Source: Cyanidioschyzon merolae (Eukaryota). From it: 64,000 bases of DNA. The notes under the pieces are model-generated. The model did no database searches. It worked only from the letters and a program-made list of their open reading frames with translations, and was not told where the DNA came from. Made by a program: the position numbers and the translations under genes. Location of the stretch: NCBI GenBank assembly GCA_000091205.1, contig AP006502.2. One strand, written 5' to 3'. Positions 821 through 64,000 of the stretch are shown here, one piece after another (positions within the stretch are counted from its first letter, which is position 1; every line of letters starts with the position of its first letter).

Positions 821-1544
821 GTATTGAGCGCAATCAGTGCATGTTCAGGCAAGATTTGCAGCAAAGCAGCACCACTGGGGAACGAGCCGCTGTCCAACGC
901 TTTGTGAATGCTTGATCAAACGCTTAAATGGCTCAACGAAATGTCGGTGCATGAAGCTGTAGGTGCAGTGTGCAGACCAGCGAGACTCGAAGGGGATTGT
1001 GGTGGCCTCAGTGCAGTTCGCACTCGCATGCGGGGACCCAGCGAGCCTCTATGGCCTTGGAGCAACTGGTACCAACTCTTTACCATCGAGAATCGTGTCG
1101 TTTTTGTTTTGGTGTTGATTTGGGAACCGGGTACCCGACATATTATCCATGTCTTATGCCTGGAGTAAACAAATTCAGAGCCCGCGTCTACGTAACCAGC
1201 CTAGTGCTACCCGAAAATTCTGACAAGCGTCTTTATCGTGTATCAAGAGTTTCCGCACGAGGTTTCCAATGCGCTTTCGGACGGAGAACCGAAGCGATAG
1301 GCGTTCTGGTAGCTGTCGCGGGGGCATCATCGACATATGCTGAAAGAATAGAAACTCTGCTCTGACTAGCAACTCGATAACAGTTTCGTTTGACCTTGAT
1401 TGTAAGCGCAGAAATGGGGAAAAGTTTCAGTATCTCGGAAAGTTTACCTTTTAGGCGGAAGGTCCCGCGAGCCGGACGAGTCTTCGGGGCTAGCTAGTGC
1501 TTCATGCTTCCTCCAGTGGCGGGTTCTTTAAAGAAACCTGAGCT

Positions 1545-1910
1545 ACTCGTCCGTAACGCAATTCAATCTGGGACTAGGAGCGTGTATGCTGCGTCTGGGC
1601 GTCGCCCTGGTCGCAGTGGACGCCCAGTATATCGCACCGTGCCGCCGCAGGCAGTGCGTCTCTCTGCGCAGCTTCCAGGCTCCTAGAATGATTAAGTACT
1701 CCGACTCCGTGTCCGATGAACCACGCCTCGAGCCGACGCCCTCAGTGGTATGCCAAAGCCGTTCTGTCTCCGTGCAGCACCTGCTTCGGCGGTATATAAG
1801 CGCTACGGCGGGTGCTCAAAACAGCTAGTCGGCGCACTATAGAACATACGAAACGACCAGTATATCAGAGAGCATGTATGGGTGATAGAACTTGAAGGTA
1901 GATGCTTCAT
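1545..1910. repeat. ~370-bp dispersed repeat, copy A (paralogue of 13291-13665, ~70% identity, same orientation)
   Basis: Shared blocks include gctactcgtccg, cccagtatatcgc, ccgcaggca, gcaggctcc(c/t)agaat.atgat.tactccgac.ccgt, ctcgagccg, gccgttctgtct.cgtgc, acgaaacgac.a.tatatc and atgcttca. Confidence 0.6.
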
Positions 1911-2362
1911 GATGGACGCTTTCCCGAAAGCCATTATCCTTTCCGAATCCTCGGATCCATGGTCAGTCTAAACATTCTCTCATCTGAAAAGAATTCGACA
2001 TACGCTGTGTAAATGTTCAAAGCGAGCACCATATGAACTGGAACGCTACCAATGGCTAGAACGTGTGTCGAAGGAGACCTATTCATCCCGAGGAAGGTCT
2101 CGTGGGGTCTTCTCGGGCGCTCCGGCGCACGCGCCAAGCAAATTTCGAACCTCCGCTTGTGCTTATACAAGCATGGGAGACAAGCACTTCATGAACACCA
2201 CCATGACGAAGCTTTACCGCTACTAAACGAAAGTAGACTGGTTAAACTTGACGAAAGCGTTCAGGTTCCTTTGTGCAATTCATCAGACTGCTTACTTTTG
2301 GGTCCCGTCCCAGGTTTACGGCTGCGGAGCGAGCACTTACAAACGGGACTCATCCAGCGCGT

Positions 2363-10896: not shown

Positions 10897-11055
10897 CAGG
10901 TAGAGTGGGAGCCTGACGGGCTGTTTGCCGCACCAAGCGACGTTCTAAACTCGAACGACGTCGGGCGTGTACAGTAGTGGCGAACCGTACGCCCTGGACA
11001 AGAAGTCTTCAACCGAGGTGCAGACGCCTCCCCGTCTTTTTGGACCGGCTACCTA

Positions 11056-12801
11056 CTACTGATTCCAATTTTTCTCATATAATTCAACTTTTAGAGGTTG
11101 TCTACTAAAGTTCTCTCTTGTCCATTCTGGAGGTCTTTTCTCCAGCACCGCACATTTCCCTATATTGACAGCGGCGTTAACGTCACGGTTCACAAACTCC
11201 ATCCGTTTCTTGCCATCACTGGTTGTACTTCCTAATGCAAGTAGTCCACGAACTTTCGACATCCTTTCCATATGCTCTTCCGTCAGCGGTCCATACCTTT
11301 TTATATCCTCAGGGCTCCTCTGGCACTTTTCTATCCCGACCCCTTGAAGTGTGCACGCCACTTCATGGTGTGTATACGATGTGCGAACCTCACCTACAAG
11401 TATTGTAACGAAACGCCTTGCGCACTCCGTGTACGTTCTCGTCGTTGGAGCTGGTGTAGTTCCTTTTTGGGTCATCCAGTGTCCTGCTCCGTATGTTGCT
11501 ACGAGCCTCTGACCTTCATTCCCCTTCAAGGCGCTCAACTCATTGAAAAAATTCGCGAACGCCCCCTGCTTCCCACAATACAAATTCATTCGCAAACGAG
11601 CCCACCGGGGCTTGGCATACTCCTCCCACAGCGCATCCCAATGAGCGACGCGAACTTCCATAAACTCCCGAAAAGCTTTAAAATCCGCTCCTCGGCTTGT
11701 CACCTCGCTCAAAGCTTCCAGGTGCTCGTTCATTCCTGAATTCCACGTCTCTATTTTCTTCCTTGCATTCATGATTCCCGATTCTCGATAGTATCTCGCT
11801 CTCGAGAACCTCAAAAGACGCATGTCTTTCTGACGTAAGTTACCATCAGTGCCATCTTTCGCACGCTTCGGTGCTGCGATGGTTATGATATTTGTGCTTC
11901 CTGGGTCCGCACCAACGGCAAATTCGTTATCCTGCACTTTCTGCGTCTCAGGACCCGCCTCTTTTTTTTCTTCATGCTTTACCGCGTCAACGACGAAGTC
12001 GTTATCCTCCACCTCTTGCGTCGCAGGATCTGCCTCCTTCTCATCTTCATCCTTCGTCACGTCAACGACGAGGTCGTTATCCTGTACTTTCTGCATCGCA
12101 GGTTCCGCATCCTTCCCATCTTCATCCTTCGTCACGTCAACGACGAGGTCGTTATCCTGTACTTTCTGCATCGCAGGTTCCGCCTCCTTCTCATCTTCAT
12201 GGTTCGCCGAGGGCGGAACTGGACGATCTGTCTTCAACTGCCGATAGTGTACACACAACGCTACTCCATCGGTTTCGATCATCCTAGTGAACAACTTTTG
12301 TTTGCTCACTTTGAGACGTTTGAAATCGAAGATATTCTTCCAGTACGCCTCCTGGTTTTCACCGGAGAACTCCTTCCTGCTAACATTGAACTCCAGACTG
12401 ATCTCCTTAAAGATGCCGTAAAGGACGCCGGAGGCGATACTCAAAAAATGTGACTTGATGTTGTACATTGGAACCACGTTGAAGCGCTTACCCATCAGGA
12501 ACGCCTTCCGTCTCTCCCACTCTTTATTTGTCTCCTCACGCAGCTTCATCTCTGCCTTGCGTTCGAGCTCTCGGTCCAGAAACACGAAATAGCGCAGGAC
12601 GAGGCAATAGTATCTTTCCTTATGTTTTTTCAACTCTGATATCTTGTCTGTTGGATTCGCCAACCCCAAGACTGCACGATGCTCTCGTATAACCGCACGG
12701 ATGACAGAAGCTTCATTCGTGCTCCTGCGTGACGCCTTCTCATAGACGAATTCGATCTCCTGCTCATGCTGGCGATCGTTCGTGATGCCATTGATAATCG
12801 T
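11056..12801 (-). CDS. TnpB/Fanzor-like RuvC nuclease (OrfB_Zn_ribbon type); no ATG start and likely decayed at the 5' end
   Basis: RuvC-I-like [15 protein letters not shown]. TnpB TS..C-type motif [14 protein letters not shown]...C. RuvC-III hallmark [17 protein letters not shown]. The open frame runs from a stop at 12802 to 11056 with a TTG at 12669 and no in-frame ATG before residue ~40. Confidence 0.6.
11926..12210. repeat. tandem 75-bp repeat (3.8 copies) inside the Fanzor-like ORF
   Basis: Units at 11926, 12001, 12076 and 12151 all start gttatcct. They encode acidic 25-aa units ([25 protein letters not shown] x4) just N-terminal of the RuvC-I motif. Copies 3 and 4 are nearly identical. 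Confidence 0.85.
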
Positions 12802-13257
12802 CTATATCCTCTTGGGAGAGATGCCCGGGTAGAGTGCAAACACGGCGCGTATCATGAGACGTTCGAGGTTCATTGTCAAATCGTTCATCAGGTTTCTGAG
12901 GTACTTTTCGCCCCGTAGTTGTAAATATTCCCGTCATCCTTGTATCGAGTACCGTTGGGGCGGGATTCTGCGTAATTTTAGTGCAGGGCATGCACTCGCT
13001 CATTTCTCCTCGACGTTTCCCTCGTACCAAGCATCAGGTGACGAATATAGGTCTTGTCGAAGAACTCGTCCGGAACCTCGACCGTTTCCATGTGCGTCAC
13101 GTCGCGATACATCTCCCTTACCAATTGCATCAGTCCTGACGACGCCTTTACAATACTCTTGGAGTACGAATCGACACGGTTTCTGATCGCATCTCGCAAC
13201 TTTTCCTTGTACGGATCCTTGATATGTGCAAGAAGGTTCCCCAGGCTTGTGGTTCAT
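12802..13257 (-). pseudogene. frameshifted ORF fragments directly upstream of the Fanzor-like frame (probable decayed N-terminal region)
   Basis: Three minus-strand ORFs in three different frames abut and overlap (13257-13000, 13199-12978, 13030-12764). A single frameshift near 12790 would join ...[14 protein letters not shown] to [12 protein letters not shown].... Confidence 0.4.
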
Positions 13258-13290
13258 GCTCCCCCATTGTCTAGTGTTATCGTGAGATCT

Positions 13291-13665
13291 AAGCTACTCG
13301 TCCGCAGTGCAGTTCATTCTGGGACCGTGAACGGGATCATTGGGCGTAACGCTGGTCCCAGTTGACTCCCAGTATATCGCTTCACTGCCGCAGGCAATGA
13401 GTCTATCTTTACAGTTTGCAGGCTCCCAGAATAATGATGTACTCCGACCCCGTATCGAGTGGGTCACCCCTCGAGCCGGCGCCATCTGTGGTACGGCAAC
13501 GCCGTTCTGTCTGCGTGCGGCGACCGCATCGGCGCTTTAGGCGCCATTGCGCACTACCAGGGCAAGCAATCGGCACACGATTGAACGTACGAAACGACGA
13601 TTATATCCGAGAAGGAGTACGGATAATGTTACTTGGAAGTAGGGTATGGATCGATGGATGCTTCA
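13291..13665. repeat. ~370-bp dispersed repeat, copy B (paralogue of 1545-1910)
   Basis: See copy A. It lies immediately 5' of the Fanzor-like ORF fragments. Local GC-rich hairpins gcggcgaccgc and ggcgctttaggcgcc. Confidence 0.6.
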
Positions 13666-15735
13666 CCGCGCACTGAAACAAAGAACAACGAAAAGAAAAG
13701 GCGTACAATCGGAGAAGGTTGGCCTCTGAAAGTGTGTTGTCAACTAAAAAAACTTCCATGCGCCAAGCAAGGCGATGCGGTAAGTTCGTTCGGACACAGC
13801 TACGCATTGATCAAGGTGGCAAGAGAGAATGGTGCTGTAGCCGGTTCGTGTGCGGAAGTTGCGTTCGGTCTGGTCCCTGCGGATTTGAGGACAGTGTCCC
13901 TTCATTACCGCTCGTAGGGACGGTGTGGAAACTTCACTTGATGTGGCTTGATTTATCGAATTTCTTAGAGAACATCCGGTAGGGAGTGGATTGATTACAA
14001 GTCAGTCTTGTAGAGAGCGTTGGCTACGTTCTGTTTTGGGTATGTGTATGTGATGTACAGGATAGGGAATACTGGGCATGTGCTTCATTCACTTGCTGAC
14101 CGTAAAATGACTAATTCGTAAACTTCATACCTGTTTTGCATGCGAGCACTAAGATCTTCACATCATTCCGCAACGTGTCTGCGATCGACCGAAAGCATGC
14201 TTTCAAGTACCTGCATGAGAAACAAAATAAAACGGATTGCGCCGGCACACGAGGTCCAGAGTTCACTGGTACGCGTATCGAGAGAACACAACGCAGGCGC
14301 TGTACCAAGGAGATTAAAATGGAACATTGACCTGCGTTCTCTGTCCTTACGTTTTGGTGATTCGCAAGTTTCTTATCCGATCTACAGCCTCGATATTCCA
14401 AGTGCAGCAATAGGGGATTCCACATTCACATCTCGTTCTAGGATTTTCGGCGGTGGTTTCGAAGTGGCTGCATCGACGCAGCCCCGCTCGAATGCATTCG
14501 ATCACCGGCATCACGGGGATTTGTGGCGTCCTCTCAAATAGATTCCTACAGAACCGATACGATTGTCTATTTCATGGGTGCGAGCCTCGGTTCTTTCCCT
14601 GACTTTACGTACAGGACGCACAAACCATGCATTCTTCAAGATTTCGATCTCACTCTTTCAAGGCAACACCTAAGCAGAACGACATGCTTCCCGAGGGTGA
14701 TGAGAAAAAGAATATGGCTTCGTCCTTTGAGTACTTGTTCACAAGCTCCTGCCAAAAGTTCATGGAACTTCTTGCGTCAAATAATCGATTCCATTCGAAC
14801 GACAAAGCCCATTTTCATCGTTGCAAAAGAGGAACCAGTATTCAACAGCAGCATGCTAATTTACGAGAGGTATACGCCAAGAGGCCCTTGTCTTCAAGCT
14901 TTGCACTAGAGAAAAGTCCTGGACTCGCTGCGCACGCATTATAGCAATCGCTACCACTAGAGGCCGAGTCACCAATTCTGGAAAAGGGAACGTAAGCGGA
15001 TTGCAATGCCTCGACTTGATCTCCGACCTGGATTTTCCGGACGACACTCGTTTCATCATTGACAAAATCGCGTTCCATGAAGCCTTAATCGACAGGAACA
15101 GCTCACGCTTGCTTGCGCAACGGACAGGGTAATTGTCAATGGCCTCACCGAGGAAGAGCCCATGGATGTAGGGTACGACACCTTTGTCTCGCGGACCTAT
15201 GACGGCACTGAGGGTACCGTCTGCACCCGTCATGCGCACGCATCGAGCGATGAAGCCAGCGTTCGCGCGCTCCAAGACGGCTCCCTGAGGCGGACGGCTG
15301 CTGGTCTTATGCGAACCCCTGAGAACAATCAAGTGCCACCGCTGCGAAGGGCGCACAGAAGCTGTATTCAAAGACGCTTGAAGTGTCAAGCGAAGCCTAG
15401 ATCGCAATGACCATGAGTGCATGAAACGCGTCGACAACGCCGGGAATCGGCGTGATCAGAAGTTCAACGCTGCCGTGTACTTCCTTGGGCCTGTGACAAC
15501 GCCACTGGAGGATACAGAGACATCGGCATATTCAGAGCCGGAGCTTAGAGCGCGAGGAAACGGAAGCAGTCACAGAAACAGCGTGCCGCGCTTCGTGTCG
15601 GTGAGAAACGGAAGAAACCAAAACTGTAGAGAGCACATCCGAACTCGCAAACCAGACCTTTTCTATTCATGTCTGACACGAGTGTAACTGCCTGTTTGTG
15701 CTGACCCTGCACGTGTCGCGCTCGAGTCGCTCACG

Positions 15736-15740: not shown

Positions 15741-15749
15741 GGGAATTTG

Positions 15750-15823
15750 TATCGGCGGCGCGACTCGAACGCGCGATCTTGTGCGTGTGAAGCACACGTC
15801 ATAACCAACTAGACCACGCCGAC
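15750..15823 (-). tRNA. tRNA-Val (anticodon CAC)
   Basis: Reverse-complement GTCGGCGTGGTCTAGTTGGTTATGACGTGTGCTTCACACGCACAAGATCGCGCGTTCGAGTCGCGCCGAT+A folds as a cloverleaf. Anticodon stem TGTGC/GCACA, loop TTCACAC. T-arm GCGCG-TTCGAGT-CGCGC. Close to eukaryotic tRNA-Val-CAC. Confidence 0.85.
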
Positions 15824-22959: not shown

Positions 22960-24756
22960 CCGCAGAAGACATCCCTGGCAACGCTGGATGCTTCAGGGAA
23001 AATCGTTGCATCGCTTCCACAAGCTCTGGACATGTTGCAGGACGTATGGTTGCGGCCTCATGACGTGAGGGTGCTGCATGTCTCGATCCGGCTTTATCGG
23101 TCATCGGATGGAAAGAACCGTCATGTCGACGCGTTTCTCATGTAGATCCTGGCGCGTCATGCGAAAATCAGCCAGCGCAGTCGATCTGTGACTCCCGCGT
23201 GTGCCTGCAACCGAGCCAAACATGGAAGTGAGCAGTCGTGGGGATCTCGCTTGCAGCCCGCGAGTCTGAGGAGCACAAGCATCGCGGCAACTGGGGGCGT
23301 TTCTCTGCTTCCAACACCGTTCTATGGCGTAAGATGGCGTCTATATTCAGCAAGATCGAATCATGGAACACTATAATCGTCTTCCGTCTGCGAAGGGATA
23401 TCGCTGCCGGGGCATCTGTAGGGTGCTCCCAACTTGCTCGATTGCCGAATTCGAACGACATCCGTGTCAGGAACCGGGCGAAAATCCATTGTCGTTTCTA
23501 ATCAGGCAAGTGGGTTTTCACTACAGGTCTGTAACGCTTCAGCAGCATGCCCACATGAAGCGTTCAACGATTACGTCGAAAGTTCACTCTCCAGAAAAGC
23601 AGCAGGACGCTCCAGAAGCACGAGTGTTCACCGGGTGCTGATCGAGGCGCTCAAGTCTCGGTGCAGAGCGTGCGCACGCGCTGACGTATGCTCCACTGAA
23701 AGCGATCCCTGTAAAAAGCGTCTTGTCTCGGTCCGCGGCCATTTTCCATCCGGAGAGAAGAGACAGGAGCCTCCCGCAACATATCCCGTGAGATGTACCG
23801 AGCAGCTGTCGAATGCCGTTTCGCGACTGGCCAGAAAGCGAGAAGGATATGTCACGCAAAGGGAATCGATTAGTTTCCATGAGAAGCTCAGTGGACGTTC
23901 GTCATGAGCTTGTGAAAATGTATTCAGTGGACGACGTCGAGCATTTTCTTTCGTCTATTCAGCGTCGCGAATTGCTGCGCCTCACGAGTTACCTTGAACC
24001 AGAACGATCGAAAACTTGAAAAATGCGCAAACTGTGTGCGCTACACGTAACAAATGGAGCAAGTTGGAGGCTGGTGCGTATGAACTGCATGATAAGATCG
24101 GTTATTTTACAAACCCTCGTTTGAGGGCGTTGCAAATCATCTTGATTCCCCTGACGTCACGAATTCCACCAGCGAAACGTCGATTGATGCAATCCGAATA
24201 GACGACAGAGAATCCCAAAGCTGCGTGTGAGTTCTCAACACCTTACGAGTGCACATCGAACGTCTAGACTCGAAGTCTAAATAAAGCATACAAAAATGTC
24301 GACAGGCACAAACAGAGCGAGCAGCCCAGTGATTGATTTTAATCTGACACGGGTATAGCGCTGCTGCATCTCCGATGACGAGTCGCCTTGTCGCCGCTCC
24401 CGAGACTCCGCGTCCATGATCGTCAAAAGGCGATGTGAAAGCCCTGCAGCTTTGTGGATTGATTCGGAGCGATCCACGCAAGTTGCGTACACGACATGAA
24501 TCTAGGTGCATATGTAGCATCAGCGTTCTCATCGCTAGCTCCACTGCATTTCATATGTGCACCGATTCGGTGGTCGATGCGAAGCGACTGGCTGTACCTC
24601 GAGATGGACTCAGAATGCGGTATTAAGAGCGCGACGTTCGTTCCGCCCGCGAGCGCCTCGCGGTTTTCTGCAGCGAGTCCAATAAGCGGCTTTGGCTTCG
24701 GGTTAGCAGGCACTCGAAAATTGCGTGAATCCAAGACGGGAACGTGGTTCAGCGCG

Positions 24757-24958
24757 AATGCAATGCGAGAATTATCGATATGGAGGCGTGATGATGCTAC
24801 GATGATGCGCGAACTTTTCTGGAATGCAACATCGCACTGCGACCACACAGGTGCCAATGAATGCAACGCGCGAATTATCGATAGGGAGGCATCATAATGC
24901 GGCCACGATGCGCGAACTTTTCTTGAATGCAACATAGCAATGCGTCCGCACGAATTCC
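24757..24958. repeat. ~100-bp tandem duplication (2 copies, ~85% identity)
   Basis: Copy 1 at 24757-24855 and copy 2 at 24856-24958. Both contain gcgagaattatcgata.ggaggc...gatgcgcgaacttttct.gaatgcaacat.gca.tgcg.c..ac. Confidence 0.7.
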
Positions 24959-25132
24959 ACGCCGCACAACTTCCGCCCTTGACGTCGCTGTGCACCAAAA
25001 TCGGCAAAATCAATAGCACAGAGAGATCGTCAGTGGTCGTGCCCGCCATGCGAGCAATGCAGTGATGAAACTTCTCAAGAAGAGACGGGATACACTCGCT
25101 TCCAATCTCGTCGGAGAAGTGGAAAACGCTTC

Positions 25133-26122
25133 TCACTGCAAACCGCAGCGCGATAACAGCATGCTGCCGGAGCCGTCCGCTCCGGAACGAAACCCGCCCG
25201 CACAGAGCGTGGCTGAGCCCTCCGCGCTAACCGCCTCCCTTGTTCTCCTTGCTGTCGACGACGACGACGTCGTCACCGCCGAACGCGACTGTTCGCCTGG
25301 CTTACTCTCTCCCTGCGATGATTCAATGGTCGGAGGATCCTGCGGTGTGAGCTGTCCGCGATTCCGGGCTGTTTTCGCATCTCGGACCGGTGCTCGCCAC
25401 GTTTTTGGGTCGCGCTCTTCCAGATACTGGTCATCTGCTTCCTGATCCTCTTCGTCAATTGGTCCGAAGCCATCGTCAGATGCGGATCGCTCTATTTCAT
25501 CGAGCAGAATCCGGAATACTTCCGCAACATTCGTCCCGGTTCGCGCACTACATTCACAGAACGCTGCACCAATTGTCTCTGCAATGTGGGCCCCTTCCTC
25601 GAAGGATACTTCCCGATCAAGCGCTTGATCAATCTGGTTCCCAACGAGGATCATTGGGATCTGATCGCTTCCGAGTATTGCTACCAGACGCTGGAATATG
25701 TAGCGGACCATTTCAAATGAGCTGGCATCCCGCACAGAGTACAGCAGTACGTAGCCGTCGATGCCGATTGTCGCTTGCGCCCCCAACGAGGAGTACTCAT
25801 CCTGACCTGCTGTATCAACAATTTCCAGAGCGTAAACCGTACCGTCTCGTCCTCGCAAGGTAGTCTGGTACGTGTCTTCAATCGTCGGCAGGTACGATTC
25901 AGGGAAAGTGCCCTCGCAAAAACGAATCGTCAGTGCTGACTTGCCAACACCGCGCGCTCCCAACACTGCGATGCGTCGAACGCGCTGCGCACCAGCTGCT
26001 GCCGCCGCATACATCCCAACGCCACCATAATACGAAGTTGAAAGCAGAGAGCCTGCACTATCAGGCACTGCATTGCCTCGCGGGACCCGCGTCGAAACCG
26101 GTTGCTGGTCGCCCTCAGCCAT
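25133..26122 (-). CDS. Rheb-like Ras-family small GTPase with a long C-terminal tail and CaaX box
   Basis: G1 GARGVGKS with Arg at the Ras Gly12-equivalent position, as in Rheb. Effector TIEDTY. G3 DTAGQDEYS (Rheb-type). NQID. C-terminal CGLQ. The track start is GTG; first ATG is 26122. Alternative start at MYAAAAAG. Confidence 0.7.
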   Translation of the reverse strand: MAEGDQQPVSTRVPRGNAVPDSAGSLLSTSYYGGVGMYAAAAAGAQRVRRIAVLGARGVGKSALTIRFCEGTFPESYLPTIEDTYQTTLRGRDGTVYALEIVDTAGQDEYSSLGAQATIGIDGYVLLYSVRDASSFEMVRYIFQRLVAILGSDQIPMILVGNQIDQALDREVSFEEGAHIAETIGAAFCECSARTGTNVAEVFRILLDEIERSASDDGFGPIDEEDQEADDQYLEERDPKTWRAPVRDAKTARNRGQLTPQDPPTIESSQGESKPGEQSRSAVTTSSSSTARRTREAVSAEGSATLCAGGFRSGADGSGSMLLSRCGLQ

Positions 26123-36976: not shown

Positions 36977-39430
36977 TTTGGAGCTGGGCATCGAAATCCT
37001 TCAATACGATCGTCAAGCGTGCACGCTTTGTCACTTGTGACGTTCATGCTGGCAACTCATGACGTGCAGCAGACAATATGCCGTGATCGCTGGACAGCGT
37101 CGATATGCTGGACTGGCTCGCGACTGGCGCAGGACGCCGAGAACGCCCTTGTCGCACGGCGGCATGCGTACCCTGCACCCTTCTCAGATGCAGGTGCAAT
37201 ACTGAACTGCTTGCTCTGTGTGTGCTTTTCGATTTTCTCGAACTTTTTTTTCGATGTATGACTTGGCAGACCAAATACAGCAATGAAGGCAAACGGGTTC
37301 ATTCATAATTTTCGGACACCTGGTTGTTTACTGCTGGTCGTGCGTTAGACGTTTTGCCGCTGGAATTCGTTACGTCACTGGAATCAGGATGATTGGCAAT
37401 GCTTACGAAAAGTGTCCGTAAAATAATCGATATCAATATCCAGTGCAGACTTAAAAGCCCCACCTCTTTTCCCTACATAGAGCTTGCTCAGAATATGTAT
37501 TTTTCAGACTTTCGATCTTTATCACAAAAAGCAACTCGTGAGGGTAGGGATTTCCACCGCTGGACTGACGACCACGAAAAACTCGACTCTGTTCCTGGTC
37601 GACTTGTTCACAAACCCATACCGAAACTTCACAGCACCTCTCAGGTCAACTGATAATCTCCGCCGTTCTGAACCCAAATCATGCTCTGCTGGTGGCCATC
37701 GGTGAAACGCCATTCGACAACCGAGTGAACCCTCGAACGGGATCTTGTCCAAGAGGCTCCCGTCTCTTCTTTTCGCATCGAAAGGGGTCATTGGCTCGGA
37801 CTTGGGTCACCGCTTTGCACGGAGAATGCATAGCGGGATCAGCAGTTGCCGAATGGATCTCGAGCCTGAATTTCCGTCCCGATTACGCAGTTCATCGTGG
37901 ACAACATCGCGTACCATATGTATCCTCTATGGAGTCGAACGGCGTGCGCAGCAGACAGAGTACTCGGCGAGGGGATGCCCCAGAAGAAGGCCTGTGATCC
38001 TAGGGTACGGCACTGGGCGCGGAAACCGAGCAGACCATCGAGTCGCGCCTGCTGTAGCCGCGAGCGGCATGTGCTGGGCGCTGAACCGAACGTTCACGCG
38101 CAACAGAGCATCGCTCGGAGCGTAAGCTATGGTGGACATGTGGGAACACTTGCCCCAGTCTAGAGTCATCACTATAAAGCGAGCACAGATGCTGTACGCA
38201 AAGAAGATGGAAATCGCAAGCGAAGCACAGAGCGCAACGACCGTTTGTGAATGAAATGCGTCGACAAGAGTTGGAATCGGCACACTCGGGGCTCGAACAT
38301 CACCATGAATATCCTTCGAGTGCTGTCGCAAGAGCTGGATGGATACCTGCGACTGACAGATTCAACGCCGGAGATAAGAGAGACGAAAGACCATTCGAAG
38401 AAAAGCTCCCATTTGCTTTTGTTGATTGAAATGGGAAGCGATTCGAAGTTGAATGTGGACGCCCTAGTTAGCCAAGTGCACCCATTCTATTTGATGCTGA
38501 CGTGGGTGTAGCGCCTCGACTATCCGCTGCAAGCGGTCTGCTCTGCACCGCGCGATCAGCAGTGCGTGAAATAGTCCATGACACGACTTCAGCAGGAAAC
38601 ATGGATTCGTAAGCTGCTCAGGGTACAGGTTCCCGCTCTTGCCCGGCAATGTCGAGCCAACCCGTGCGGTATTGAGATCAATCCAGACCTGCAGCATCTC
38701 CGCCGAATACCTAGGTTCATCGGGTGTGTGGTTCCGGTACACATACCGTCTCCAGCTTCAGTGCCGTGCTACACGAGCGCGTTGGAGATTGGGTGCAAGG
38801 AAAGCGATCCTCCTTGGAAACGAACCAAAAAATATACGGAACGCATCGGCCTCCGCGAACGACCCAGCTTGCGACCCGCTGCAAAGCTTCTAGCGCCCTT
38901 TACAGGAACAGAAACACTTTTCCCGAGCTGTTTTCTGAAAGGAAACCCTCTTCCCGGTATGCCTCACTGCGAAGCGGGCCACCGGGCAGAAACTTCCCTC
39001 CCCGGACACTCCGTCGGAATGAGCGGATGCCCACTGCAGCTTATCGCTAGGCACTCATCGTGTAGGATCGATGCGTCGGAGCGGAATCCCGGGATGCGCC
39101 ACTGATTTCGGCAGCTACGATGAATCCCGCCGCTCCGTTCCATACCCCAAAGAAAATGCGCATGCTGCAGACCGCTCTCTCCGACGGGGCCAGAAATTCC
39201 ATTCTTCGGATAACTGTCTGAGAACCGAGCCTCGCGCCCACGCTTGCGGTGAAGGTATATGATGCGCCGTCGCCGCCGCTGCAGTCGCTATCACGCAAAG
39301 ACAGAGCGGCTCCGAGGCGCAGGTACGGTCATCCGCATGCGCAGTACACTGTTCGGGCGTGGCGTACGTAGTGCTGTGCATTTCAGAGTCGAGCGCTGGG
39401 CCCGCCATAGTGCTCGCTCGCCAACGAGCT

Positions 39431-51417: not shown

Positions 51418-52329
51418 TCAGTGCTCTTTGACTTGATGCGGTGAGTGCTGTTCAAGCTGCCTGCCGACCCGAAGGAGGTCTTCAGCATCGATAAGCATTG
51501 CGATGGGAACGAGCTCCTCATGCACATGGAAACCAGAGTCGAGTGAGAGGCAAACCGCATCCGATGCATTTTCGTAAAGCATTTGATCAGCAACTGAGGG
51601 AAATGACCACTCCATCGCCGCTTCTCTATTGGAGCGACGTTGCTTGATTCGCAGCTGCCTCGGAGCATGAGTGGTCATCCGAGAGGCGCCTTGCCGCGAC
51701 TGTGCCGCGGAGGAAACGTCGGAAGCGCGTCTCTCTGCGAAACCGATATGCACGAATCGAGAGGCCGCTCGTTTGAAAAGCGGGTCCCCAGCCTGTGAAC
51801 CCGCCATCGCGCAGGCGTTTGCCTGGTCGTCGTGCACCACCCGCCACAACTGTGGCAAGAGCGCGATCGGAAAGTTTAAGCAGAGTGTCCCCCATACCAA
51901 CCAAGCCGTTTCTGTTTGAGGAAACCTGGTTCTCGGCAAAATGTCCGCATAGGTTGCATAGGGGATGCAGGCGATAACGGCCAGTGGAAAACCCTCTATC
52001 ATTACGACAGTGCTCACCTCCGGGTGCTGGATGAGCACTTGCGCCAACGCCTGAGCACTCCGACCGTACCACCGAAGCATTCTAGACACCTCTTCTTGGT
52101 ACGTGCCGGTGAGGGACTCGAAACTGACCGCGACGGTCAAGTGATCAACGAGTTCGTCTTCGGCGTCGTCGATGCTCGCCTTTGACTGACGACGACGTAC
52201 GTTTCGAGTTTTGGTAAGAGCGTCCTCTCGGTGCCATCGATAGCGACGAGCACGCTGCTCCAGAGTCGAGGCGCTGTGGTATACACGCCTCCGGCGACGG
52301 AGCCGACGCTGTAAGCTCCTCGAACGCAT
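51418..52329 (-). CDS. hypothetical protein
   Basis: 304-aa ORF from the first ATG (the track start is TTG). No recognisable domain. Confidence 0.3.
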   Translation of the reverse strand: MRSRSLQRRLRRRRRVYHSASTLEQRARRYRWHREDALTKTRNVRRRQSKASIDDAEDELVDHLTVAVSFESLTGTYQEEVSRMLRWYGRSAQALAQVLIQHPEVSTVVMIEGFPLAVIACIPYATYADILPRTRFPQTETAWLVWGTLCLNFPIALLPQLWRVVHDDQANACAMAGSQAGDPLFKRAASRFVHIGFAERRASDVSSAAQSRQGASRMTTHAPRQLRIKQRRSNREAAMEWSFPSVADQMLYENASDAVCLSLDSGFHVHEELVPIAMLIDAEDLLRVGRQLEQHSPHQVKEH

Positions 52330-55300
52330 GAGCTCGACGCTGAACTCCTGGGGAACTGTGTACGGGGCAAGAACGCGAACCTGCTCCCTGCGCCACACGC
52401 CAGCAGTTCGCAGCAACAGGTGGCATGGTGTCTAGGTCATGGGGACTGGACTCTACCGCGGCTCGATCTAGACATTCCGCAACAGACTTGGAACTATGAA
52501 CGTGATGGGGTATAAGTTGAGCGATATGATCCATACAGAGAGCGGAGGAGTACGCGAAGCGCAGCCATTGCGTAACGGACGACTTGAATCGATCGATATG
52601 AGCGGGTAACTAATCAGAAATGCGATCGGAATACTGAGCGAGTGATGATTCGGGTGCGAGTATTCCCCCAATAGACTCCAACATGTTCATGTGATTGGGT
52701 AACTCGTCGGGGGTATGGTGCGAATAGAGAGCCAAAGAGTGCGAAAGTGTTTCTGGTGATGATTCCCCAATAGAAGCAGGAGCGTGGTAAACTTTGTGTC
52801 CTCGTAGCCAGACTCTTATGCCGAATGCTTGACATTTTTCGAGAAAGCTTCAGAGCAGCTACTGCTCATGCTCGCAACGCGATAATTTTCCTGCTCTGGA
52901 GCGAAGAGGAAACACTCGAGAGCTAATGCGATCACAAGGGAACTTGAGCATGCACCGCATACACTCGGATTGGATGGTGTTATAGACACAGCGTGCCGGC
53001 ATTGTACGCAGAGCAGCAAAATCCCGAATACCTGCACCAGCACGCACTTTTCGTTTCCGTTCGTTTCTCCGCGCAGGTATTCAAGAAAACGACTGTCTCC
53101 TGTAGAGTGGAGAACGTTTGCCAAAGTGCTTCATGCTTTCAGTGGTAGCGTGCAAGCATACTGGGCTCACTTCCACGAATTCGTCATGCTGCAGTAACCA
53201 GGTAGATGAATCGCGCTTCTCGTTGTCCTTGTTCTGAACGTGGCGTACTGAAAACAGATCCCGTTGAATTCTATCTACAGAAATGTCTCCTCGTGAGCAA
53301 AGCCCATTCCATTTTTTTCTGAGAAATTCTATAAAACAGGCCGGAGCATATGACGCTTCCATGTCGTTGATGCGAACGGTGATGACGAGAAGCGGACAGA
53401 CAGAGAAAAACAAACCTCTATGCGGGACCATCGCGTATTGAACAAGACGCATTCGATTACGCCATGAAAGAGGAACGCATGCTGTACCAGAGACAGGTTT
53501 TCGTGTTCCTCACTGAGACCTGTTTCGTGAGAAATCTTAGACCCGTGTATGGGTGAACAAAGAGCAGCAATCCGTTGTTCTTGAACGAGATACAAGCGAG
53601 CATGGTGGCAAAAAAAACTGCCCTGGTGGCGATTCAGTCGATTGGTCACGTACCAGTCGCCAGTCGGACAGAATCGTTGAACACTTCCTCCTTTGTCAAA
53701 TCATGCCGTGTCGTCCACTTCGAATATTCTCCTGTCCCGCTCTTAGACAGCGTCAGTTTCCTTCACTCAGAAACTATCACAGATCATGCAGTTGAGACTG
53801 CGGTTGAGCTCCTCTTCGATTTGGATTATTCTCCCTGGCTAGATCCATTCAAAGGCGTCTTTTCCGTTTGCAAACGCCATTTCTGCGCACGCCGATCACT
53901 AGAGGAGTCCTTTGCATCCGCAAAACCGAAAGATTCAGTAAGGCATGAAGAATCGCGTAACTTGTGAATCGAGAACATCGCTCCTAGTCACACTTGCCTT
54001 CACGCTCCTTGTCAAGCGACCCATCGGACGCGTTCCGTACGCAGGGCTGCTAATTATCCACGTTCTTCGGAATTTTTTCAATGAAATCTTCGCAGAGCAG
54101 CATATATGATGCTCGGGGCTGTGGACGCAAATCGGTTTGGTCGAAGGTTCATAGATTCACATACACGAACACGCTTCCAAGCATCCCTTGAAGCGCTGCC
54201 GCGCCGCCTCGGCGACGGAAACAAATGTAACCGTTCAGGTGCCAGAAAGCATCGAACCGAGCTCAATAGTCATACGCTGTTCAATGTCGTGCAATTCAGT
54301 CTGCACACCCTATAGGCGTTGCACACTTAGCTTACTAGATCAGATAAGTTGAGAATAGTGTGCGGAATTCCTGGGCTGTAACCGGAGGCAAATAATCAGC
54401 TATGGGCCGGAGAGTTCCCAGTGGTTGCCAGTTCGGATGCGACGTCACGATAAAGACGCGAGTTGTTTCAGATCGTCCAAGCTCACTAGCTGCCCTTGGC
54501 CTCGGACGGACGGGTGTCGTATCCAAACGATACGTGAAACTTGATGGCTCCTTGCGCTGCATCTTGCAGTACAAGGTTCTTATGAAAAGAGTCCTCCCGA
54601 TCAGAGCAGACTTCCTCCCAGAATCCGAGCGCCCTCACCCCCTCAAGCATCTGTTCTGTGTGTGGTCCCGGTATCTCAGCTCAAGGCCGATGATATCAGC
54701 GCAGAGAGTTGCGAACTCTATGAACTGATCATTGAGTTGCACCTGATCACTGCGATTGAAAATGTAGCACTGGGACAACTTTAGAAAAGATCATTGGTGG
54801 AGCTCGTTCCCGACTTCTCGTGTACAGGATGGCAATGAAAAGAAGTTTGCATGAACGATTGAGACCAACAGAATATCCATATGTATGCCTCTCGTGAGAA
54901 CTACGCCTCAGTCGAACAACGAGACTCATTTTCAATCCTTCACCATCGATGAAGGGCAAGACACTCCGGTGGCCGTGGATCCCACGTTGCGTGGCGTTAT
55001 AGCCATCGCCATGCCTTTCAATCAAGGGTGACGCAGCACAAATTTGAACGGAGTGCAGCTGAAGCTGAAAAACTTCCACAGAGCTCGTTGTCGTCCGGGG
55101 TCGGACATGTTGGACAGCAGGAGCCGACGAGCAAATGGAATCGCGGCGTCAGGATCCATCTCGATGCTCTGAGCATCGTGTCCTGCAGAGGAGCATGCTT
55201 AGTGCGCTTCATTCTGAGAGTCTATGCGCGTCGAAGTTGCTCACATGATCGAAACCTGGCAGGAATGCATGGTATTGCGCTGGAGTCGCCCAAAGCTTTG

Positions 55301-56908
55301 GGTTTACGAACACAGGAAATGAGTATTCTCAAAATTCTTCTATGATTTCGAAAGGGAAATTACAGAAAGTTCACTTCGGTTGGTGGCAGCCGCTGACGCG
55401 CTACATGCTGTAGCGCGTCAGGATCGCTCGCCTGCTCCTTCAACAAGTGCGTACCATGAGTCATGCATCGATTCTATATGATTCCTTTCGATGCGTCCGG
55501 GACGACGTACAAGCATCACGAGCACGCAGGTATTGGTAGGAAAGAAAGCGGTGGTTCAGCCCCGGATGCACAAGATGGCGTGCGGCAAGCTTACCGAACG
55601 TCAGATGACGAGACGTTCCTATGTATGAGGCTTGATTCGATGCGATACGAATAGCAACCATGCACACAAGAACGTTCTACATCGAGGCTTGAACACCTCA
55701 ATCAACATCTGGGAACGAGTTGTACTTCCGGAGCGTACTGCGGCTTCGTGTCGAGCGATCATGAAACGTACTCGTTTCGTGCTCAGTATGAGCATTGTGC
55801 TGAATTGCTGCAGACTTTCGATGAAAATCTCGCCGGTCAAGAGAGATGGCGCAGGATTCTCGTCCAGAGCAAGGCACTGGTACGAAAAGGTCAGCAATCC
55901 AGAAACGCTGGTGCGCCATCCACAGCGATACCGGGAACGATATTCCTCGGTTAATGATGTACGATAATAGTATTCTCTTATTCGATGTTGCTGGGGTTTG
56001 TTGATGATCACGCTTTCGTGCAAACAGCGCATCCTTCGAGGACTCCATGCAGATCCCGGACTCCGCTCGTGTGAAAATCGGCGCTGCAACGTCCCATGTA
56101 GTGAGAAACTGCCCAGATAGAGCGTCCGATTTCGCTCAACTTGGTGTACACGAGTAGTTTCAACGGCAGGCATGGTGCACCAGGCAGCCTCGTCCAGCCT
56201 CTAGCCATACTATTGCGAAACCATTTATACAGGACAGAACAGCGCTCGCCCGGAGCCTAGTCTTGCGGCTGTAGACCGCTGAGCAGGACGATCGTGTGCA
56301 ACGACTTGAACGAGCGCGCCGGGTAGAGCTGTAGCATTCCAAGTGCGTTTGACGTTAAAATCCCATTAGTTCCTGGATATTCATCGGTTCAGTGCAATCC
56401 GGTGGTGCATATACGATCGTTGCGGGGCGATACTACACAGGACGCGTCTTGCGAGGACAAGCCATCTGGTCTCGTATGGTGCTATTTTGAACCTGCTTAA
56501 TGGTCTCGATGAAATTCGTGGCGCTCGCGGGTACGATATCCCACAGCAGTCATTCGCTGCATCAGGCTAAAGGTTTACAGTTTCGTGCGAAGCTACGTGC
56601 GCCTTGGATGAAGAGCGCACTCCGCGTCAATCACCACGGGTTTCACCCTCTAGAATACGATACATCCTATGCATTCGTTTAATATCGACAGTTCAGAACG
56701 AAGCTCGATCCCCGTGTTGCACACTCGATAGAGTAAGAAGCGCACAGTTGCGTCAATAGCGATATGCGTGATGCTACCCCTAACGACGCGAGGTGCACAG
56801 CGCATGGACATTGTCGTCCACTGATAGCGCTCTGGTTGTTTCAGCGCCGGGCGCTTCTGCCATAATGCGCGCCCTCGGGCATTGAGCAACGAAACGCTCT
56901 GGCACGAG

Positions 56909-58138
56909 TCACTGCCTCTTGGAAGCAGGCTTTGATGATTTGATTTTGAGTTTCTCTGAAACCGCGTCAGCACCGATCGCATCAGCGTTTGAAAGGCCCA
57001 TGAGTTTCTCAGTCTCTTCGTCAACTTTGCGCAACTGCGCGTTATCCTCCTGTAGTTTTTGTATCAGCGCCATTAACTGTGCCTTTTCTCGCTCCTGGCG
57101 CTCCAGCTGTGCCTTAAAATGTCGGATGAGTTCAGACATTTCGCGTTTCAACGTAAGGACCTCGATTTGGGCCTGGGCATTCTGCTCGCTTAGAACGCGA
57201 TTGCGCGCTTCCAGATCGTTCACCATGGCTCGGCGACGTTCACGGGAAGCGGCTGCAGCCTGGCGGTTTCGTTCCGCGCGTAGGCCATCGGGTACTCGGT
57301 CATTTGACGTAGCTTGCAACTGCTCGGCCGGCTCGCTTTCAAATCTCTTCCTGCTATCCAGGGCGTCAGCAGCGGTAACAGCTTCCGGGGCGCCACACGT
57401 TCGTGCCGAGTCTGACGCTGACCATGGACTTGGCTCTATTCGCTTCAGAGGGCTGGGCGATAAAAAGCTGGAGGCTGCCTCGTTCGCCACTGGTGCCTCC
57501 GTTTTAGTCTCTGACATCAATGGTCTTGTGGGGAGACGACCCATCGCGGGTCCAGCTGGATCATGTTCGGATCCGACATCCGAAACCACTCTCGCATCAA
57601 TCGCATTGTCCAGTGGAGTGTGAGGGCGTGGTCGTTTTGTGGCGCTGGCGGGTCGCTCGGCAACTTGGTTGCCTCCGAAGGAGCCCTCCTGACGGAGTAA
57701 CCTCACCAGTGGATCTTCGTCATCAACGAGTCCAGCAGAACTATTCTGCATCAGGAGTGTTGGCGATCCCAGTAGTTCCGTGGTCGTTGGCAAGCTGCGC
57801 AAATCTGTAAAAGGGAACTGAAAACTGAAATCGGACCCATTCAAGTTAAACGAAGTTGGCGGTGATAGGTTTTGCATGAAGTTCGGGAACGGATACCGTT
57901 GGCGCTGCGCTGCCGCCGCAGCCGCCACTGTGGCAACCGATGCAAGCTGCGCAAGCGCCGAGCTTGAACTTCCAAAGCTATCCGCGCTGCCGGGCGGGAC
58001 GTCTTCCCCGCTCCCTCGCTCAGGGAGCGAGCTCCCTTTCCTCGGAGTCTGTGTTGAGTTGCCCGGAAACGCCTGTGTTGCCAAGGACGCTCCGTCGTCA
58101 TCTTCAAAAACCGGGCCCCGCTGCCCACGAACGTTCAT
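56909..58138 (-). CDS. bZIP transcription factor
   Basis: Basic region RAERNRQAAAASRERRR (N-x7-R bZIP signature) followed by a heptad leucine zipper (LEARNRVLSEQNAQAQIEVLTLKREMSELIRHF). ATG at 58138. Confidence 0.6.
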   Translation of the reverse strand: MNVRGQRGPVFEDDDGASLATQAFPGNSTQTPRKGSSLPERGSGEDVPPGSADSFGSSSSALAQLASVATVAAAAAAQRQRYPFPNFMQNLSPPTSFNLNGSDFSFQFPFTDLRSLPTTTELLGSPTLLMQNSSAGLVDDEDPLVRLLRQEGSFGGNQVAERPASATKRPRPHTPLDNAIDARVVSDVGSEHDPAGPAMGRLPTRPLMSETKTEAPVANEAASSFLSPSPLKRIEPSPWSASDSARTCGAPEAVTAADALDSRKRFESEPAEQLQATSNDRVPDGLRAERNRQAAAASRERRRAMVNDLEARNRVLSEQNAQAQIEVLTLKREMSELIRHFKAQLERQEREKAQLMALIQKLQEDNAQLRKVDEETEKLMGLSNADAIGADAVSEKLKIKSSKPASKRQ

Positions 58139-63420: not shown

Positions 63421-63426
63421 GGTATA

Positions 63427-63499
63427 CACCGCCAAAGGGGCTCGAACCCTTGACCCGTGGATTAAGAGTCCACTGCTCTACCGACTGAGCTATGGCGGT
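63427..63499 (-). tRNA. tRNA-Lys (anticodon CUU)
   Basis: Reverse-complement ACCGCCATAGCTCAGTCGGTAGAGCAGTGGACTCTTAATCCACGGGTCAAGGGTTCGAGCCCCTTTGGCGGTG. A-box TAGCTCAGTCGG. Anticodon stem GTGGA/TCCAC with loop CTCTTAA. B-box GGTTCGAGCC. Close to eukaryotic tRNA-Lys-CTT. Confidence 0.9.
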
Positions 63500-64000
63500 A
63501 GTAGGAGATCTGGCGAGAATTTGATATATAAATAGGTTGGGGGTTTTGCGCGCAATTTGCGTGGCAAACGCACTGCTGCCAGCCATGATGTTGTCTCTTT
63601 TGTCTAGTATTCCATAGATGCGCGCCGTTGACGTCCGTGCGTTTGCGTTTTCCGGCTTTTGAACTCGATTATGTTCCAGCCCCGCTGCATGTAAAAGAGT
63701 GCTTTTTCGCAGTTCGTAGTGGGGGATCTGAATCGCTATGCAATTTTTTGTGTAGATCGTAGACGAATTGCCAGTAAGATATATTCCTCACTGAAACGTT
63801 CAAAGAGTACTGCATTCCTCCTTCAGTTCAATCATATCATAGTACACAGATAATTGAGGAATCTTGAAAGATGACAGATGCACTCCGCGCCAAAAACCGA
63901 TATTCCCACAGCGTCCATGCGGTCAACGGTAGACAACGACGCGTCGATCGCCTTACGAAAAGCGAAACCGACGATCATCGTCACCACGTGCGCATCAGAT

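Follow-up and report, generated by a model that had tools for sequence, protein, structure and literature searches.

The genome of the alga Cyanidioschyzon merolae holds 4,775 genes in 16.5 Mb, with introns in 0.5% of the genes (PMC1955436). What, in such a genome, fills a stretch of 4,579 bp in which no gene can be recognised? The stretch in question (the island hereafter) lies at 52,330-56,908 of a 64-kb piece of C. merolae 10D chromosome 20 that was analysed as a whole (the window), between the genes CMT382C and CMT383C. The original prediction described it as a gene-free island of lower guanine-cytosine (GC) content and named a centromere, a degraded transposon, and a gene with introns or odd composition as candidates. 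We found that the island is very probably the fossil of a single two-gene cut-and-paste transposon, which carried a transposase gene followed by a gene for a Fanzor1 nuclease.

The first of the two pseudogenes is related to transposases of the Tc1/mariner/IS630 type. A six-frame Pfam scan of the island gave a sole match, to DDE_3, in the open reading frame (ORF) at 53,575-53,967 (E 3.3e-5, 24 bits). A phmmer search of this fragment against 1.84e9 representative proteins yielded 87 matches, including relatives of about 300 amino acids (aa) with E-values down to 2e-14; these relatives carry PF13358 (DDE_3), often also PF01498 (HTH_Tnp_Tc3_2), and the best of them share the motifs DETSFGR, LLDNVAFHHS, and PPYSPWFNPIEG. 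A family profile built from nine full-length relatives matched 53,401-53,931 with 126 bits (E 5e-40, positions 104-279 of 300), and a weak collinear piece was found in a different frame at 53,319-53,414. Thus, the earlier statement that no ORF of the island has recognisable homology is contradicted by the DDE_3 match and, much more strongly, by the profile matches to both genes. This copy is dead and not a live member of the family. Its frame is interrupted by a TGA at 53,554 and, before that, by a frameshift. The catalytic triad reads T, D, K in place of D, D, E, and the second D and the position of the E are about 35 residues apart, as counted on the sequence. The relatives possess a helix-turn-helix DNA-binding domain, for which neither Pfam nor the profile gave a match upstream of 53,319.

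The second pseudogene follows on the same strand and encodes a Fanzor1 protein (a TnpB-like RuvC nuclease) of the CMe-1 type. In a self-comparison of the window, the plus-strand frames at about 55.0-55.7 kb resemble a 537-aa ORF at 11,056-12,669, which belongs to a CMe-1 copy. The CMe-1 consensus, taken from the supplement of Bao & Jurka 2013 (PMC3627910), was aligned by tblastn to 54,783-55,736 with 26.5% identity over 340 aa (E 3e-14), and this alignment stays in one frame while crossing many stop codons. The second ORF of L015, one of the intact relatives described below, aligned with 29% identity over 448 aa (E 1.4e-18). A Fanzor profile matched 54,489-55,775 with 137 bits (E 2e-43, positions 258-694 of 705), and a collinear N-terminal piece was located in another frame at 54,103-54,366 (E 5e-5). 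The main match extends over the C-terminal half of the protein, which contains RuvC. Overall, the relic is 30% identical to the Fanzor of L015, 28% to that of L018, 27% to CMe-1, and 20-22% to those of L016, L019, and L022.

The Fanzor relic has 13 in-frame stops (11 + 2; 20 would be expected at full randomisation) in addition to local frameshifts. The 11 stops of its body fall in 429 codons, which is about half of the random expectation at the same composition, indicating that the copy is old. Two of the three RuvC residues are gone: the D of RuvC-I is kept (VDPT), the E of the RuvC-II motif DEFRT is lost, and the RD of RuvC-III now reads RG. As for an omega RNA, no consensus structure was shared among the 3' regions of five relatives, and no Rfam match was obtained in the island.

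The relation between the two pseudogenes becomes clear from intact loci. Ten independent intact loci, drawn from metagenomes and giant-virus bins, were compared, and in nine of them a Fanzor1 gene of the same type comes directly after the transposase gene. This holds for all five metagenome loci that were examined (L015; L016, which is identical to L017; L018; L019, on a 493-kb contig; and L022), where a DDE_3 gene of about 300 aa precedes a same-strand ORF of 609-731 aa without any Pfam domain; these downstream ORFs share 30-42% identity with CMe-1, and their matches to the Fanzor profile have E-values from 1e-133 to 1e-260. The same pairing is present in four (L023, L024, L026, and L027, including giant-virus bins) of the five viral contigs with downstream sequence. 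TA-flanked inverted ends of about 29 bp enclose both genes in L015, L019, and L022 (consensus TAYACYC...TGAAWAATGGTACAC), and L018 has, at equivalent places, a shorter exact inverted pair of 14 nt. The transposase start is preceded by the left end at a distance of 15-100 bp, and the right end is about 170-220 bp past the Fanzor stop, giving an end-to-end length of 2.9-3.4 kb where both ends were located. The gap between the two genes is about 50-190 bp, with a slight overlap in one relative. With GC contents of 21-62% among the intact loci, the family is evidently distributed over a wide variety of hosts.

In the island, the order, strand, and spacing of the pseudogenes (Table 1) match those of the intact loci, and the island is therefore read as one decayed copy of such a two-gene transposon. 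Its history may be proposed as follows. A single DNA transposon would have been inserted in plus orientation between CMT382C and CMT383C, both genes arriving together as one element, and its fossil would make up about 2.5-3.2 kb of the island. By the model of its intact relatives, the living element would have had terminal inverted repeats of about 29 bp and a TA duplication. Its first gene would have encoded a DDE transposase of about 300 aa, responsible for excision and reinsertion of the element. The product of its second gene, a Fanzor1 protein of 600-730 aa, might have cut empty sites, so that repair from a copy allowed the element to persist, by analogy with TnpB. Fanzor has been reported to be an RNA-guided endonuclease (PMC10432273), and the ancestral protein presumably worked in the same manner. 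Later, both genes decayed through stops, frameshifts, and loss of catalytic residues, and the ends changed beyond recognition. The GC content of about 50% is common to all transposon-derived DNA of the window and was probably set by decay and not by the original composition. The rest, about 0.7-1 kb on each side, may be ordinary intergenic DNA containing the CMT382C promoter and the CMT383C 3' end.

Table 1. Location of the features of the window (window coordinates).
Feature	Position	Strand	Remarks
Tc1/mariner/IS630-type DDE_3 transposase pseudogene	53,319-53,967	+	residues ~76-290 of a ~300-aa protein
Fanzor1 (TnpB-like RuvC nuclease) pseudogene, CMe-1 type	54,103-55,775	+	profile positions 132-694 of 705
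Longest island ORF, 184 aa	55,619-56,173	-	antisense to 3' end of Fanzor relic; judged spurious
Short direct repeat pair GTGATGATTC..CCCAATAGA	52,642-52,675 and 52,756-52,774	+	two exact matches
CMT382C (hypothetical protein, left flank)	51,418-52,329	-	ORF identical to BAM83332.1
CMT383C (bZIP protein, right flank)	56,909-58,138	-	ORF identical to BAM83333.1; weak Pfam bZIP_1 match
TE-N2_CMe (name of Bao & Jurka), stand-alone ~620-bp 5' leader of CMe-1A	1,362-1,984	-	82% identical
CMe-1A Fanzor1 repeat copy	~11,030-13,663	-	73-83% protein identity to CMe-1 consensus; frameshift near 12,906
901-bp element	23,457-24,357	-	inverted pair TATACCCGTGTCAGA at 24,357, GACATCCGTGTCAGG at 23,457
Transposase N-terminus relic	24,270-23,974	-	profile E 1e-6
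Transposase N-terminus relic	37,277-37,579, in patch 37,174-38,510	+	profile E 7e-4
Transposase N-terminus relic	63,746-63,985	+	profile E 1.5e-8
Weaker relics near 14.0 and 59.3 kb	patches ~13.9-15.7 kb and 58.8-59.8 kb		transposase N-terminus profile

Several points weigh against this reading. The Pfam match to DDE_3, taken alone, falls under the curated gathering cut-off, and the E-values obtained with the local profiles apply to a search space of small size; the bit scores themselves (126 and 137) are high. The N-terminal 75 or so codons of the transposase and about 130 N-terminal profile positions of the Fanzor were undetectable in the island, which requires the assumption either of a deletion or of an ancestral layout that differed. 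The non-viral intact relatives are known from metagenome sequences alone. Moreover, 52,330-53,318 (0.99 kb) and 55,776-56,908 (1.1 kb) have no assigned origin, and searches of the island with a weight matrix, nhmmer, and local alignment found terminal inverted repeats or a TA duplication at chance level only. Likewise, the end consensus of the relatives, the ends of the short relics of the window, and an inverted alignment of the island flanks gave nothing above shuffled sequences. Since the ends were not found, the boundaries of the fossil were inferred from the gene positions, at about 53.0 kb and 56.0-56.1 kb.

Individual candidates for the ends were rejected. A 14-nt inverted pair at 52,514 and 56,129 (3.6 kb apart) is one of about two to three such pairs expected by chance, and it also lies 550 bp from the transposase start. 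The position 53,003, suggested as the left end by a MAFFT alignment, failed a shuffle test, and no support was obtained for TACACTCGGA at 52,960, despite its likeness to the end motif.

Scans of the island for direct, inverted, and tandem repeats returned chance-level pairs only and no larger repeat structure. The short internal repeat that had been pointed out before was confirmed as exact: the GTGATGATTC..CCCAATAGA pair occurs twice, starting at 52,642 and 52,756, with no other occurrence in the window and no match in 100 shuffles. Relative to the start codon of CMT382C, it lies 310-445 bp upstream, outside the detectable relic, and about 100 bp around the two copies align weakly. The pair could be a candidate element of the CMT382C promoter or a small local duplication.

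As for composition and coding potential, the gene-free character of the island was borne out. Its ORFs are all at most 184 aa and spread over mixed frames, and it is the longest stretch of the window without an ORF supported by codon usage; the runner-up measures 3,452 bp and contains a CMe-1A repeat. By a codon-usage log-odds score trained on the long ORFs of the window, the island ORFs range from -0.06 to 0.08, compared with 0.08-0.16 for the window genes. The longest ORF, judged to be spurious, had no family match at a meaningful E-value and scored 0.013, and its start codon varies between metagenome gene callers, giving 184-205 aa. Neither the Rfam scan nor the transfer RNA (tRNA) scan of the island returned a match.

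The claim of a lower GC content held in direction but not in size. GC is 50.6% over 52,420-56,905 and 50.8% over the whole island, about 50% and not the 'high 40s', as against 55.3% for the window, 56.9% for putative coding sequence, and 54.1% for other non-coding sequence. By 1-kb bin, it varies between 47.9% and 53.2%, the lowest 300-bp window has 45.7%, and the relic core has 49.8% over 2.7 kb. The drop is genuine but modest.

On the left, the 303-aa product of CMT382C had no meaningful family match, and the next neighbour, encoding FabI, is CMT381C, an exact match to BAM83331. The first few hundred bases of the island must contain the promoter of CMT382C, and the 3' untranslated region of CMT383C must reach into it from the other side.

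Variation in natural populations was analysed on 14 contigs (L001-L014, from JGI and Logan metagenome assemblies). These contigs come from hot-spring and other metagenomes, reach up to 142 kb, and are 99.2-99.5% identical to 10D chromosome 20, thus providing ready-made population data for C. merolae. All contigs spanning the site contain the island in collinear form, and presence/absence variation was not observed. It has 16.6 segregating sites per kb, similar to ordinary intergenic DNA (14-22) and above the genes for a proteasome subunit, FabI, and bZIP (1-9). The ratio of synonymous to non-synonymous variants is 9:0 in FabI; for the frame of the Fanzor relic it is 6:14, for the fragment of the transposase 3:3, and for the 184-aa antisense ORF 1:7 (two contigs only), the counts being small throughout. 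The island evolves neutrally, as spacer DNA. A separate observation concerns CMT382C, which shows six synonymous and five non-synonymous variants and an indel in L006; it is fast-evolving in natural populations, while its neighbours are strongly constrained.

The low-GC, transposon-derived character is not unique to the island. The window has ten 1-kb bins with a GC content below 51.5%, and each of them overlaps transposon-derived sequence; since transposon-derived DNA accounts for every low-GC bin, low GC marks transposon DNA generally and not this island in particular. One such place is the copy of CMe-1A, a repeat with about 150 copies of about 3 kb in C. merolae, which lacks inverted ends and whose class was listed as unknown (PMC3627910). 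The leader of the window copy is 74% identical to the 5' end of the consensus, and even the Fanzor of this copy, nearly intact as it is, goes unrecognised by Pfam. The stand-alone leader TE-N2_CMe coincides with a local GC dip. For the 630-bp leader of CMe-1A, no homology to a transposase gene was found. Inside the CMe-1A ORF, at 11,913-12,200, lies a 75-bp tandem repeat of 3.8 copies that encodes a repeated acidic unit of 25 aa, which occurs a single time in the CMe-1 consensus.

Short relics of the transposase N-terminus, read as further diverged members of the same family, are found at several other places (Table 1). The patches containing them share 65-76% DNA identity among themselves, over 100-445 bp. 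The 901-bp element holds a transposase N-terminus relic (E 1e-6) together with a faint trace of the C-terminus of a Fanzor (E 0.03), and its inverted pair is similar to the end consensus of the intact two-gene loci; the element has the appearance of a non-autonomous derivative that arose by internal deletion. At 15,672-15,686, TACACTCGTGTCAGA is an exact end-like motif. With at least five such relics, the 64 kb hold more than would be expected from the published figure of eight transposase-related elements per genome. Two tRNA genes of the window, tRNA-Val (CAC) at 15,749-15,823 and tRNA-Lys (CTT) at 63,426-63,500, both on the minus strand, adjoin transposon-relic patches. Near the relic at 24 kb, a 103-bp tandem repeat (24,756-24,951, 1.9 copies, 83% match) is located in or beside the ORF at 24,423-25,136.

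With this background, other explanations of the island can be weighed. The two pseudogenes might be the remains of unrelated insertions, a transposase-only element and an old Fanzor element, lying side by side and co-oriented by chance. Many transposase-less Fanzor elements (CMe-1A) do exist in C. merolae, several short transposase N-terminus relics without a full Fanzor occur in the window, and no shared inverted ends surround both pseudogenes, all of which would fit. However, order, strand, and spacing are those of nine of ten intact loci of this transposase subfamily, the relic Fanzor clusters with Fanzors that adjoin such transposases, and both halves are decayed to a comparable degree; chance juxtaposition is thus unlikely. 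Still less likely is that the island encodes a functional product, whether a spliced gene, a domesticated fragment of the transposase or the Fanzor, or a non-coding RNA, and we consider this scarcely plausible. The island does have ORFs of 121-184 aa, which metagenome annotations list as genes, and a transposase fragment of 121 aa is open in eight population contigs. Against this stand one in-frame stop in the transposase and 13 in the Fanzor, the frameshifts, the lost catalytic residues, non-coding codon usage, neutral-like single-nucleotide variants (3:3, 6:14, and 1:7), and the lack of any Rfam or tRNA match. As for the spliced or oddly composed gene proposed at the outset, it is very unlikely in a genome where merely about 0.5% of genes have introns.

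The third candidate, a regional centromere of chromosome 20 bound by CENH3, could coincide with the transposon fossil or be independent of it. C. merolae centromeres are described as one region of 2-3 kb per chromosome with a GC content of 48.4%, compared with 55% genome-wide, and no motif (bioRxiv 10.1101/096016, citing Kanesaki 2015). The relic core (2.7 kb, 49.8%) fits this description in size and GC, and going by the gene numbering alone, CMT382 may lie near the middle of the chromosome. A gene-free stretch of 2-3 kb with GC near 48% is not discriminating, since other relics have the same properties: no fewer than six further transposon-derived patches of the window are equally gene-free and have the same GC. 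About 150-253 CMe-1A copies of similar composition face 20 centromeres in the genome, which gives a base rate of about 5% for a centromere. In addition, the excess length of the island is fully explained by the relic, and the island has no tandem or inverted repeat structure. We regard it as very improbable that the island is or contains the centromere, and equally so that the fossil itself is bound by CENH3. If the latter were true, decayed Fanzor-type transposons, and not anonymous AT-richer DNA, would be the seeds of the short, motif-less, lower-GC centromeres of C. merolae.

A single decayed transposase-Fanzor transposon, the candidate favoured by direct homology and gene order, turns an unexplained gap in a very compact, well-finished eukaryotic genome into a defined object, and it makes lower-GC patches a practical marker of transposon fossils in C. 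merolae. A previous study counted eight elements in C. merolae that are related to transposases and weakly similar to those of bacteria (PMC1955436), and the transposase of the relic is probably one of these elements listed by Nozaki. The '253-copy' repeat of Nozaki 2007, with its weak relation to the protein WSV486 of white spot syndrome virus, is presumably the same as CMe-1A. Two separately listed items, the relics of a 'bacterial-like transposase' and the abundant Fanzor repeats of unknown class, are thereby linked: a single type of two-gene element, of which intact copies persist in environmental and giant-virus genomes, is compatible with both. We tentatively suggest, as a possibility somewhat short of even, that the transposase-bearing type was the autonomous relative, now lost as a partner, of the transposase-less CMe-1A repeats; the short TA-ended relics also may have had it as their lost autonomous partner. 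If a genome-wide link were confirmed, it would provide a mobilisation mechanism and a likely entry route for the main repeat family of the alga, and its most abundant repeats, of unknown class since 2013, would join the Tc1/mariner superfamily. The pairing of a transposase relic with a Fanzor1 relic in C. merolae seems not to have been described before, nor does the presence of CMe-1-type Fanzors elsewhere within TA-ended elements carrying this transposase seem to have been noted. The intact loci supply new natural transposase-Fanzor pairs with defined ends for Fanzor biology. Finally, the interval looks neutral, which is relevant to transgene landing sites, provided that it is not a centromere.

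Compared with known systems, the island shares with the regional centromeres of C. merolae a size class of a few kb, the lack of genes, and a GC content near 48-50%. Those centromeres are defined by CENH3 binding, and the traits of the island are common to many non-centromeric relics. With the DDE transposases of IS630/Tc1/mariner, the first pseudogene has a homologous catalytic core, from which it differs in the substituted first D and E, the in-frame stop, and the undetectable N-terminus. CMe-1A is found in the same host genome and has the same Fanzor1 subtype; the CMe-1-based profile matches the relic (E 2e-43). Unlike the relic, which has a transposase upstream, CMe-1A has neither a transposase nor inverted ends, and the DNA of its copies is about 80% identical to a consensus of 3,169 bp. 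No DNA similarity was found between the relic and the window CMe-1A copy or the 635-bp consensus leader, and the protein identity is 27%.

Fanzor1 genes have been reported inside Mariner-type elements (PMC3627910), and among these PUl-1 and PGv-1 consist of a DDE transposase gene followed by a Fanzor1 gene, within about 3-3.6 kb bounded by inverted ends of about 24-33 bp and a TA duplication (PMC3627910). The intact relatives have the same build as these Tc1/mariner elements. The island copy differs from PUl-1 and PGv-1 in being dead and without recognisable ends, and the likeness described here is one of overall build. The IS200/IS605 elements (TnpA and TnpB) differ from the island in that their transposase is of the HUH type, whereas the island, an inactive copy in a eukaryotic host, has a DDE cut-and-paste partner. 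They are nevertheless the nearest working analogy, and what the two have in common is the combination of a transposase with an RNA-guided RuvC nuclease, which is thought to aid the retention of the element (PMC10432273).

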